Assembly (NCBI GenBank): GCA_018052475.1
Contig: JAGPNG010000007.1
Coordinates: 2,588-66,587, forward strand
Direction: 5' to 3'
Length of the DNA stretch: 64,000 bases
Source: Candidatus Fermentithermobacillaceae bacterium
GTDB lineage: Bacteria; Bacillota; Sulfobacillia; Fermentithermobacillales; Fermentithermobacillaceae
Shown: piece after piece, positions 7,727-11,051 of the stretch
Layout: every line of letters begins with the position of its first letter
How positions within the stretch are numbered: position 1 is the stretch's first letter
Notes under the pieces: generated by a model
Databases searched by the model: none
What the model was told of the DNA's origin: nothing
Seen by the model: only the letters and a program-made list of their open reading frames with translations
Made by a program: the position numbers and the translations under genes

Positions 7727-9382
7727 TTAGTCTTTTCTGCTGCCTTTACGCGTATCAAACTTGCGCATCTTGTTTATCGCCGTAGTGTGGGATATGCCCA
7801 AAGCGCTCCCAATCTGTCTGGAAGAATAGTAAACCTTGGAAGCTTGTGCAATGTAATGGGCTTCAATCTTTTCTAATAGCTCCGGTAGGTCCACAGGCAG
7901 TTTATCTGGCAGATAAAAGAGAGATTCGCTCCTTTTTTGTTCGGGTTCATCTGTTAGACTCCGAGATAGGTCTAAGAGGGCGTCTGGCTCTCGGAACGCT
8001 GATGCCGAGGGAACACTTTCTATGACTAGATGCGTCGCATCAATTTCTTCTGAGGCGAGTATTGCTGCCCTTTGAATCACGTTTTGAAGCTCGCGGACGT
8101 TTCCGGGCCAGCCATGGTCCAAAAGTCTGGCTATGGCGTTTTGACTCAACCTTAAGTCTGGTTTGCCAAGTTCTCTTGCCATGGTATTTACGAAATGTTC
8201 TGCCAGTAAAGGAATATCTTCTTTCCTGCTCCTAAGAGGAGGGATCCAGATAGGGATGACATTTAGTCTGTAGAACAGATCTTCTCGGAAAGTACCGTCG
8301 TTCATCATCTGCTCAAGTTCTTTGTTGGTTGCCGATACTATTCGGATATCGATTTTTATCTCTTGGCGTCCGCCTACACGTCGAATGCGTTGCTCCTGGA
8401 GCGCCCTTAAGATCTTGGCTTGGAGCGGGGGGGAGAGATCTCCAACTTCATCCAGAAAAAGCGTTCCATGGGTTGCTAGTTCAAGTAGCCCTTGTTTACC
8501 ACCGGATGAAGCGCCTGTGAATGCGCCTCGCTCATAACCGAAAAACTCGCTTTCAAGAAGGGAATCAGGTATCGCGGCGCAGTTTACCGTCACAAACGGA
8601 CCTTTCCTTCGAGATGAGTTCTTATGGATCGCTCGGGCGAAAAGCTCTTTGCCCGTACCGCTTTCCCCCCTGAGCATCACGCTCATATTAGTGGGGGCCA
8701 CGGTCTTGGCGAGATTTATAGCATTTGTAAATACCTGGCTTTCCCCTATTATATCTTCGAAGTCTATTAGCGAAGGCCCGCTTACCGACTGAATGAGCTG
8801 ACGGACGTCGTCTAGTTCGCGAAATATTATGAGCGCTCCTGCGGGGATGCCTTCTTCATTTGTGATAGTCCGTACGCTGGTTAGAACCCGGGTACTTTTC
8901 CCTTGCCATGTTACTGTTACTTCAATGTTATCTCTGTCCTCATCTAGCGACAAGGCTGGTTCGAAGTCCCTGCTCTTAAAGATCCCTTCTAGATTGGGCT
9001 GCCCTTTTTCAGGGATTCCTAGCATGTCTCTTGCTTTTTTGCTGAAATACGTAACAGTCCCTGACTGGTCAACGACTATGATACCTTCGCTGATGTTGTC
9101 GCCTATAACATCGAGAGTGGTTTCTTTCTTCTCGTATTCCATTATGTCGACTTCAATTATCTCGCCTATATCTACTACATGAGATTTCAGTTGGCGTGTA
9201 AGAGTCGCCCATGAAAGGTCTGAGGGCCATTGAACTTTGAAGTATATATGAGGGGGATTGACTTCAATGTTGAGTACATTTATCCCAAGATTGCTAACAG
9301 TCTTGAGGATGTCATAGACCATCCCTACTCGGTTTTGAGCCCCTGTGAATCTTAGTCGTTTTATCTTGTGGCTTCTATCCAA
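7727..9382 (-). CDS. TyrR-like sigma-54-dependent activator (ACT, PAS, AAA+ and HTH domains)
   Basis: 551 aa ORF with an N-terminal ACT-like region, a PAS region, GESGTGKE and GAFTGA motifs and a C-terminal HTH ([19 protein letters not shown]). The start is a TTG at 9382 preceded by a GGAGGGA ribosome-binding site. It is divergent from the tyrosine phenol-lyase gene. Confidence 0.8.
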
Positions 9383-9433
9383 AGGACTCCCTCCAGGTAT
9401 TTGAAATGACTAAATCGATCCTTGCCTGTCCCT

Positions 9434-9502
9434 TGTAAATATGTTTTACAAACAGGTGACAATCTGTTAATGACATTTACAGCTGTAAACGATGTTTACG
9501 AC
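9434..9502. promoter_or_regulatory. Cluster of TyrR-box-like palindromes (candidate activator-binding sites)
   Basis: TGTAAAtatgtTTTACA at about 9434-9450 and TGTAAAcgatgtTTTACg at 9485-9502 match the enteric TyrR box TGTAAA-N6-TTTACA. A further TTTACAgcTGTAAA lies between them. Confidence 0.5.
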
Positions 9503-9616
9503 AAGGGTGACTCCAAATCCTTCAGTCAAACTAACTAACCGATTTGGTCTCTCGCAGTCATGGCTGTAACCTGCATATGGAGTATTTGCTTGAGAGAGCG
9601 CTTATTCTTTCAACGA

Positions 9617-9632
9617 CGGCATGCTTTTTGCA
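9617..9632 (+). promoter_or_regulatory. Sigma-54 promoter upstream of tpl
   Basis: cGGCAT-gcttt-TTGCA gives GG-N10-GC with correct spacing, 45 nt before the tpl ribosome-binding site (GGAGGGG) and ATG. Confidence 0.55.
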
Positions 9633-9677
9633 TTAACATAGATGTAGAGTCAAATCTACTCCTGGAGGGGATTCAAA

Positions 9678-11051
9678 ATGCCCAATTATGTACCAGAACC
9701 TTACAAGATCAAGATGGTAGAACCTTTGAAGATGATTTCCAGAGAAGAACGAGCAGAAAAGATAAAAGAGGCAGGCTACAATACCTTTCTCCTAAAGTCC
9801 AGAGACGTCTATATTGACCTTCTTACCGACAGCGGCACTAACGCTATGAGTCAGTATCAGTGGGCTGGTCTGATGCTTGGTGACGAGGCTTATGCGGGTA
9901 GCGAGAACTGGCTGCATCTTGAAGAGACAGTCAGGGAACTTTTCGGGTTCAAGTACGTGGTTCCTACTCATCAGGGTAGAGGCGCTGAGAACCTAATATC
10001 CAAAATCTTGATAAAGCCGGGTATGTATGTGCCGGGTAACATGTATTTCACTACTACCCGGGCCCACCAAGAGCTCGCCGGCGGAACTTTCGTGGACGTG
10101 ATTATAGATGAAGCTCACGACCCTGCGAGAGACGACATTTTGTTCAAAGGCAATGTGGATCTTCAGAAGTATGAAAACCTAATTAAGAAAGTAGGCCCAG
10201 AGAAGATCCCTTACATCACTGTAGGTGTGACGGTAAACATGGCGGGCGGTCAGCCTGTTAGCATGGCGAATCTAAGAGACGTGTATAAGCTTTCTAAGAA
10301 ATACGGTATAAGAGTTATATTCGATGCTACGAGATGCGTTGAAAATGCCTATTTCATAAAGACTAGAGAGCCGGGTTATGAAGAAAAGACTATCGCAGAA
10401 ATAGTGAAAGAGATGTTCTCCTACGCTGACGGTTGTACCATGAGCGGGAAGAAAGACGGAATAGTCAACATGGGCGGCTTTTTGGCAATGAACGAAGAGG
10501 AGATCTATCTGCAGGCCACCGGCTTGGTAGTCGTCTATGAGGGGATGCCCTCTTATGGCGGGATGACCGGCAGAGATATGGAAGCATTTGCCATTGGCCT
10601 TCGTGAGGCGATGGACTATAGCTATATAAGGCATAGAGTGGAACAAGTTCGGTATCTGGGCGAACAGCTCATTGAAGCCGGCGTTCCTATTGTAAGGCCT
10701 GTAGGAGGTCACGCAGTATTTCTAGATGCAAAAGCGTTCTTGCCCCACATTCCTCAAGATAAATTCCCTGCTCAGGCGTTAGCTGCCGCCATATACGAGC
10801 ATTCCGGAGTAAGGACCATGGAAAGAGGTATCATCTCCGCAGGCAGAGACAAAGATGGCAATGACTACTATCCAAAACTCGAACTAGTTAGGTTGACCAT
10901 CCCGAGACGCGTGTACACCAGCGCTCACCTAGATTATGTGGCGGAATCAGTAAAGAAAGTCTATGAAGAAAGAGACAAAATTACAGGACTCAAATGGGTC
11001 TACGAGCCCCCCGTGCTAAGGTTCTTCACGGGCCGCTTCGAACGCGTATAA
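9678..11051 (+). CDS. tpl: Tyrosine phenol-lyase (beta-eliminating lyase family, PLP-dependent)
   Basis: 457 aa [21 protein letters not shown]-like ([14 protein letters not shown]) and the C-terminal RFFTGRF motifs match tyrosine phenol-lyase rather than tryptophanase (which has HFDTTxxH and RHFTA). The PLP-lysine region SGKKD is present. Confidence 0.85.

Follow-up and report, generated by a model that had tools for sequence, protein, structure and literature searches.

Activators of the TyrR type that act with sigma-54 are known in Pseudomonadota, where they include PhhR, GcsR, and the TyrR protein of Azospirillum (PMC4894688, PMC1173090, PMC6375630); for GcsR, three tandem binding sites and an RpoN promoter have been shown experimentally (PMC4894688). 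The enteric TyrR box has the 18-bp consensus TGTAAA-N6-TTTACA (PMC10170061; PMC4894688) and, at the enteric gene for tyrosine phenol-lyase (tpl), assembly of a TyrR hexamer from three bound dimers is the accepted model (PMC10170061). For Clostridiales, Nie, Dong and Yang described in 2019 the sigma-54 regulons of amino acid catabolism, 39 in all, tpl not among them (PMC6615313); the sites predicted there for MdeR, TGTAATAAATATTTACA and TGTAAGAAATGTTTACA, have a 5-bp spacer and lie 170-200 bp before the start codon (PMC6615313 supplement). Earlier, Song, Bonner, Wolinsky and Jensen suggested, in a single sentence, that a PhhR homolog of Clostridium tetani activates tpl (PMC1173090). Apart from this 2005 remark and the 2019 catalogue, we found no literature that gives the sites, the promoter, or the distribution of a tpl regulon in Firmicutes and, in the searchable literature, no description of tpl regulation outside Enterobacteria. 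Here we analyze a locus of this kind, in which tpl is paired with a gene for a TyrR-like activator. It lies in a 64,000-nucleotide stretch (hereafter, the window, in whose coordinates all positions are given unless a different locus is named) of contig JAGPNG010000007.1, from an uncultured, anaerobic bacterium of the family Candidatus Fermentithermobacillaceae, class Candidatus Fermentithermobacillia, phylum Bacillota; the window matches a metagenome scaffold.

A divergent gene pair encoding tyrosine phenol-lyase and a TyrR-like activator

The regulator gene (7727-9382, reverse strand) and tpl (9678-11051, forward strand) are divergent and flank a 295-bp intergenic region. We consider it probable that the two genes form a catabolic switch, in which the regulator would serve as the enhancer-binding protein for a sigma-54 promoter located between them; our confidence exceeds this level for the architecture and falls short of it where tyrosine is named as the signal.

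The product of tpl, 457 amino acids in length, scores 825.6 bits against the NCBIfam equivalog model of tyrosine phenol-lyase (TIGR02618; cut-off 720.7 bits) and falls under the respective cut-offs of the tryptophanase models. Its closest solved structures in the PDB are the tyrosine phenol-lyases of Erwinia and Citrobacter, at 700-710 bits, compared with at most 482 bits for tryptophanases, and its MSGKKD motif, with the pyridoxal phosphate (PLP)-binding lysine, aligns with the solved enzymes. The protein is identical to MBP8620520.1, annotated as tyrosine phenol-lyase of a Candidatus Fermentithermobacillaceae bacterium. The gene identification made in the original prediction, an earlier reading of the same DNA, is therefore secure. 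Microbial phenol, in guts a precursor of a uremic toxin and in anaerobic digesters an inhibitor, originates from tyrosine phenol-lyase, which is also the industrial L-DOPA enzyme. The gene is monocistronic: a ribosome-binding site, GGAGGGG, is located 7 nt upstream of the ATG (9664-9670, forward strand), and an intrinsic terminator follows the gene (11072-11120, forward strand), with a 13-bp stem (11072-11084/11102-11114) and a run of six U residues. Because the loop of this hairpin is 17 nt long, a simple terminator scan missed it, and it was recovered by folding (-26.2 kcal/mol; z = -3.5 against shuffled sequences); the genes beyond it converge on the hairpin.

The regulator, a protein of 551 amino acids with a TTG start codon behind GGAGGGAG, consists of an ACT-PAS sensor, an AAA+ domain carrying the GAFTGA motif, a variable linker of 50-80 residues, and, at the C-terminus, a helix-turn-helix (HTH) domain of the HTH_50 family. 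Pfam recognizes Sigma54_activat (PF00158, 236.5 bits), AAA_lid_14, PAS, and HTH_50 (46.5 bits with a cut-off of 27), and gives a sub-threshold match to ACT (23.5 bits with a cut-off of 27). The NCBIfam model of TyrR (NF008085) aligns end to end, with residues 16-544 of the regulator on positions 8-512 of the 520 in the model, at 286.7 bits, under the equivalog cut-off of 576; overall identity to Escherichia coli TyrR is about 30%. By these scores, the regulator is TyrR-like in architecture and not a TyrR equivalog.

Because a sequence search of the PDB with the sensor domain was weak (phmmer; the structure 2JHE at E = 1), the sensor was modelled and its fold was compared with solved structures. 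The AlphaFold model of residues 1-205 (41 sequences; predicted local distance difference test score 77.9) contains an ACT fold (beta-alpha-beta-beta-alpha-beta) and, after it, a PAS fold, and its best match, across both sub-domains, is the N-terminal domain of E. coli TyrR, 2JHE (E = 2.5e-9 over 201 columns; template modelling score 0.54-0.57). Judging by this model, the N-terminus of the regulator is an ACT and PAS sensor of the same type as the TyrR N-terminal domain. For the C-terminal 65 residues, the sole sequence match in the PDB is 1G2H, the DNA-binding domain of Haemophilus influenzae TyrR. The signature S-x-R...L-G-x-S-H-T...N-K in this domain aligns with R484, H494, T495, N499, and K500 of E. 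coli TyrR, among which H494, together with its neighbors, reportedly contacts the TyrR box, as shown by mutagenesis in the Pittard laboratory. Thus, for the sensor and the DNA-binding domain alike, the nearest solved relative is TyrR; the AAA+ core resembles those of sigma-54 activators in general.

In the AAA+ domain, the Walker A motif (GESGTGKE), the Walker B motif (LFLDEVG), and GAFTGA, the sigma-54 contact motif, are all intact when aligned with E. coli TyrR, which has an 8-residue gap at the position of GAFTGA. The motif is also intact in all homologs of the regulator that we examined, GAFSGA and GSFTGA variants included. These results bear out the original prediction in that the regulator possesses the complete ACT-PAS-AAA+-HTH arrangement, with the ACT part recognized by the fold of the model, and in that the motif for coupling to sigma-54 is missing from enteric TyrR; the recognition helix, too, proved to be of the TyrR type, with the equivalents of the five aligned residues retained.

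Three 17-bp TyrR-like boxes and a sigma-54 promoter

The intergenic region contains three inverted repeats of the form TGTAAA-N5-TTTACA. Box 1 (TGTAAATATGTTTTACA, 9434-9450) is a perfect 17-bp repeat, and box 2 (TGTTAATGACATTTACA, 9465-9481) and box 3 (TGTAAACGATGTTTACG, 9484-9500) have one mismatch each; the centers of the boxes are at about -201, -170, and -151 from the predicted transcription start, so that box 2 is 31 bp from box 1 and box 3 is 19 bp from box 2. All three boxes are packed within 67 bp and are the only sites of this form with at most one mismatch in the 64-kb window, where 0.09 are expected. Where at least two palindromes matching the enteric TyrR box had been predicted, there are thus three, with half-sites that do match and a spacer that does not, being 5 rather than 6 bp in every box. 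The 18-bp version with N6 is absent from the intergenic region, and elsewhere in the window, it is represented only by two sites with two mismatches each, which is the chance level. We therefore rejected the label of canonical TyrR boxes for these sites.

The boxes are located 117-183 bp upstream of a -24/-12 promoter for sigma-54, cGGCATGcttttTGCAt (CGGCATGCTTTTTGCA; cGGCATG-N4-TTGCA), on the forward strand at 9617-9632, with GG at 9618-9619 and GC at 9630-9631. The GG is 60 nt ahead of the tpl ATG, which would place the transcription start near 9643. A simple consensus scan detected no sigma-70-like promoter facing tpl in the intergenic region, and an Rfam scan of this region and the tpl leader produced no match. 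On the opposite side, the boxes are only 52-118 bp from the start codon of the regulator and, therefore, probably mediate autoregulation of the regulator gene.

Conservation of the module in Bacillota

A scan of a genome collection yielded nine orthologous loci from Fermentithermobacillaceae and related Bacillota metagenome-assembled genomes (MAGs), with regulators 66-81% identical to that in the window. In all nine, tpl is divergently adjacent to the regulator, and both orthologous lyases that were checked (L001 and L009) score above the equivalog cut-off for tyrosine phenol-lyase. The intergenic regions of these loci, 332-742 bp long, are largely unalignable, and still each contains N5 boxes and a GGYAYG-N4-TTGC element, the latter present in 10 of the 10 orthologous regions with the window included. 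The spacing of 31-32 and 18-19 bp between boxes recurs in most orthologs, although two or three of these loci have a degenerate box 2; box 3 is the best conserved (TGTAAA.aaT.TTTACgAcat). Box 3 and the promoter are between 91 and 371 bp apart, a variation consistent with DNA looping. The position of the promoter relative to tpl varies as well: the -24 element is found 145-186 nt before the ATG in four loci (L002, L004, L005, and L007), which implies long leaders there, and 58-82 nt before it in the other six, including the window.

The specificity of this pattern is apparent in the 16 related regulator-linked intergenic regions. Allowing no more than one mismatch, we detected 24 boxes with the N5 spacer in these regions, where 0.027 would be expected, and no box with an N4, N6, or N7 spacer. 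The strict GGYAYG-N4-TTGC element is present in 13 of the 16 regions, compared with 0.022 expected, and the remaining three have TGGCAYA-N4-TTGC. The sigma-54 promoter originally proposed ahead of tpl is, accordingly, a conserved feature of the related regulator-linked loci.

More distant loci were sampled from both sides. Among six regulator homologs with 39-51% identity, four are encoded directly upstream of a lyase above the tyrosine phenol-lyase cut-off (Tissierella sp. MSJ-40, Sporomusa sphaeroides, and two MAGs). All four tpl genes are preceded by a TGGCAY-type promoter and, in all but Sporomusa, clear N5 boxes are located just past the stop codon of the regulator gene. Three further loci were sampled from the side of the enzyme. 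One of these, in Tepidanaerobacter acetatoxydans Re1, has the full module with N5 boxes and a sigma-54 promoter; the other two, in which tpl has no adjacent regulator, contain neither the boxes nor a -24/-12 element and serve as a negative control. Altogether, among the five distant regulator-tpl loci, the sigma-54 promoter is present in five and the N5 boxes, with at most one mismatch, in four. The regulator-tpl pairing was found across four classes of Bacillota, and the palindromes are conserved in related genomes both near and far. The suggestion that the TyrR box itself is conserved across phyla holds for the half-sites, which are common to Pseudomonadota and Bacillota, but not for the complete site, the spacer of which is one base shorter.

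In the Negativicute S. sphaeroides (CP146991; L026 5099-5128), the only candidate sites, such as TGTAAACAAAAGATTACG, have two mismatches and a 6-bp spacer, like the proteobacterial box, and the DNA-binding domain of the Sporomusa regulator is the most divergent in the set, with 35% identity. These observations together hint that spacer length and the DNA-binding domain may co-vary.

Two of the six distant homologs have the same boxes and promoter before an operon with Asp_Glu_race and S-Me-THD genes (racemase/hydantoinase-like) instead of tpl. These HTH_50 paralogs, from a Thermoanaerobacterales MAG and an Emergencia sp., are 43-51% identical to the window regulator; in both loci (L021 5573-5757; L024 5079-5255), TGTAAA-N5-TTTACA boxes accompany a TGGCACA-N4-TTGC promoter, and the operon includes amino acid transporters. 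The motif is, accordingly, shared by a wider regulator family that has several targets. An attempt to tell the tpl-linked and racemase-linked regulators apart by per-domain identity showed no separation, sensor identity to the window regulator being 26-36% in the former and 29-36% in the latter.

In other Bacillota, a transporter gene is found downstream of tpl, of the NhaC-type Na_H_antiporter family or, in Sporomusa, AA_permease (L023 6928-8322, L030 5176-6570, and L026 7184-8584); likely, these transporters are involved in tyrosine uptake. In the window, tpl ends at its terminator, with no transporter nearby.

Proposed mechanism and alternative explanations

Under the mechanism that we propose, dimers of the regulator would bind the three 17-bp TGTAAA-N5-TTTACA repeats some 150-200 bp upstream of the tpl transcription start. 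The ACT-PAS sensor, possibly together with the AAA+ domain, would perceive a signal, most likely L-tyrosine, the substrate of the enzyme, whereupon the bound dimers would assemble into an AAA+ hexamer. Looping of the DNA would bring this hexamer to the closed complex of RNA polymerase and sigma-54 on GGCATG-N4-TTGCA, and ATP hydrolysis, with GAFTGA contacting sigma-54, would open the promoter. The resulting single-gene message would end at the hairpin terminator, and the enzyme would cleave tyrosine to phenol, pyruvate, and ammonia, which would feed fermentation.

The least secure part of this mechanism is the effector. Tyrosine is, most plausibly, the signal, a choice suggested by the identity of the target gene. 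There is a minor but appreciable chance that, with the same architecture and sigma-54 mechanism, the regulator responds to something else, be it phenylalanine or another aromatic compound, a general amino acid or energy signal, or a partner protein. Pathway substrates are the usual signals of catabolic enhancer-binding proteins, which argues for tyrosine, as does the persistence of the regulator-tpl pairing across four classes of Bacillota. The enteric tpl gene is tyrosine-induced through TyrR (PMC10170061). Conversely, the TyrR-like GcsR responds to glycine rather than to aromatics (PMC4894688), the paralogs with the same DNA motif regulate an operon that does not look aromatic, and sensor identity is no higher in the tpl-linked homologs than in the racemase-linked ones. 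Because paralogs serve a different operon and the two groups overlap in sensor identity, effector specificity cannot be read off the protein.

Several observations weigh against activation of tpl by this regulator through sigma-54. The -24/-12 match, taken alone, is at the chance level, with 30 matches of at most two mismatches in 64 kb compared with 29 expected, so that the case for the promoter comes from its position and conservation. The 17-bp spacing differs from that of all characterized TyrR, PhhR, and GcsR sites, which are 18 bp long, and the predicted binding is therefore an extrapolation from the identity of the half-sites and the conserved contact residues. Inspection by eye of the boxes across orthologs revealed no conserved sigma-70 promoter for the regulator gene, so that its autoregulation is proposed as probable. 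Furthermore, none of the surveyed genes in the window is rpoN, and, as noted above, the box motif is shared with paralogs of about 43-51% identity whose target is a racemase/hydantoinase-like operon.

Some of these points would fit a different scenario, in which the boxes serve chiefly in repression or autoregulation, as operators do for enteric TyrR, tpl is transcribed from an unrecognized sigma-70 promoter, and the -24/-12 match is irrelevant. Enteric TyrR does act at sigma-70 promoters and activates tpl at such a promoter from three distant boxes (PMC10170061), the boxes in the window are near the start codon of the regulator, and the lone promoter match is insignificant within the window. 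We nevertheless regard this scenario as highly improbable: GAFTGA or a permitted variant is retained in every homolog examined, a -24/-12 element occurs in all 16 regulator-linked loci and is missing from the tpl loci that lack the regulator, and no sigma-70 consensus faces tpl. Finally, it could be supposed that the two genes are neighbors, and the AT-rich palindromes resemble binding sites, by coincidence and without any regulatory connection; all that speaks for this is how common TGT/ACA-type palindromes are in intergenic DNA in general. This notion is effectively refuted by the site statistics, with their strict spacer, and by the ortholog alignment, where the footprint pattern stands out from diverged intergenic DNA.

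Activation of tpl by the TyrR-like regulator via sigma-54 accordingly remains the reading that we favor. The original prediction that the architecture points to genuine sigma-54 activation is supported by the intact GAFTGA motif, the HTH domain, and the conserved promoter and boxes, together with the lack of a recognizable sigma-70 promoter directed toward tpl in the intergenic region.

Neighboring genes

A second module of a similar kind is located about 3.5 kb away. It includes ornithine fermentation genes, all on the reverse strand, namely, an oraE-like gene (588-2852), a gene for an OrtB-like PLP enzyme (3211-4629), and ord (4975-5994), with a perfect -24/-12 element, TGGCACGGATATTGCA, ahead of the ord operon (6111-6126, reverse strand). 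Divergent from this operon is a gene for a second activator with the GAFTGA motif and a PAS-AAA+-HTH_8 architecture (6233-7702, forward strand). The arrangement agrees with that of the OrdR regulon, a prediction made for Clostridiales (PMC6615313). Given the second activator and the perfect promoter before the ornithine operon, the source genome very likely uses sigma-54. Another perfect -24/-12 match, TGGCACTTTGCTTGCT (18173-18188, forward strand), lies inside the gene for an SDH-type ClpP-like protease (17784-18653) and is probably due to chance.

On the other side of tpl, the reverse strand encodes a SerK/SbnI-like ParB_N protein (11124-11681), with weak matches to ADP-dependent serine kinase, directly downstream of a gene for a TrpB-like PLP enzyme (11689-13149; NF009057, 712 bits). 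This pair could represent a phosphoserine-dependent indole salvage route of the TrpB2 type, adjacent to the gene for an aromatic lyase.

Comparison with known systems

The locus resembles those of PhhR and GcsR in Pseudomonas and of TyrR in Azospirillum brasilense in the domain order of the regulator, ACT-PAS-AAA+ (with GAFTGA) followed by a TyrR-type HTH, in the divergent orientation relative to a catabolic amino acid operon, which is frequent in those systems, and in the presence, upstream of an RpoN promoter, of some three inverted repeats of the TGTAA type (PMC4894688; PMC1173090; PMC6375630). In contrast to these systems of Pseudomonadota, which have the 18-bp site, the system in the window belongs to Bacillota, targets tpl, has the 17-bp N5 site, and its regulator contains the 50-80 residue linker. 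The enteric tpl genes of Erwinia herbicola and Citrobacter freundii share with the window the enzyme, a homologous regulator, and three upstream TGTAAA...TTTACA boxes (PMC10170061), but they are transcribed from a sigma-70 promoter with the participation of CRP and IHF, and their TyrR lacks GAFTGA. The enteric boxes, 18 bp in length, are also spread over about 230 bp (-313.5, -200.5, and -85.5), whereas those in the window are clustered within 67 bp (PMC10170061).

These similarities and differences allow a bolder interpretation, which we consider unlikely: the TyrR-tpl partnership could be an old, mobile module, with the sigma-54 enhancer as its native form and the HTH_50 activators of Bacillota as a large family of amino acid sensors reading a 17-bp enhancer. 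The enteric arrangement, in which three TyrR boxes far upstream activate tpl at a sigma-70 promoter, would then be a derived relic of this enhancer, dating from the loss of GAFTGA by TyrR and its move to an 18-bp site. Were this the case, the one-base difference in the spacer would mark a changed geometry of the DNA-binding dimer.

Within Bacillota, the closest counterparts are MdeR and the C. tetani proposal. MdeR, an enhancer-binding protein with an ACT-ACT-PAS sensor, also has predicted TGTAAN-N5-TTTACA sites and TTGGCAT-N-TTGC promoters upstream of a gene for a PLP-dependent lyase; its target, however, is methionine gamma-lyase (mdeA) rather than tpl, and only the site type and the sensor architecture are shared. 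The C. tetani proposal likewise involves a TyrR/PhhR homolog from a Firmicute that has kept its sigma-54 contact motif and would activate tpl, but it came without the sites, promoter, and comparative support that are available for the locus in the window. Against this background, the novelty of sigma-54 coupling in a TyrR-like protein that was implied by the original prediction is overstated, given the precedents of PhhR, GcsR, and Azospirillum TyrR, the N5 site predicted for MdeR, and the link suggested for C. tetani in 2005. The locus leaves the understanding of sigma-54 or TyrR-family regulation as it was and adds no new regulatory principle; what it adds is a modest twist, with conserved half-sites and a strictly shorter spacer. 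Together with its relatives, it provides a precise, testable model for Bacillota, comprising a regulator, three sites, and a promoter, and the module has cultured carriers, namely, Tepidanaerobacter acetatoxydans Re1, Sporomusa sphaeroides, and Tissierella. For the evolution of the DNA-binding domain, the comparison offers a small but clean point: recognition of the TyrR half-site appears to be conserved between Pseudomonadota and Bacillota, with the spacer in Bacillota shorter by a single base.

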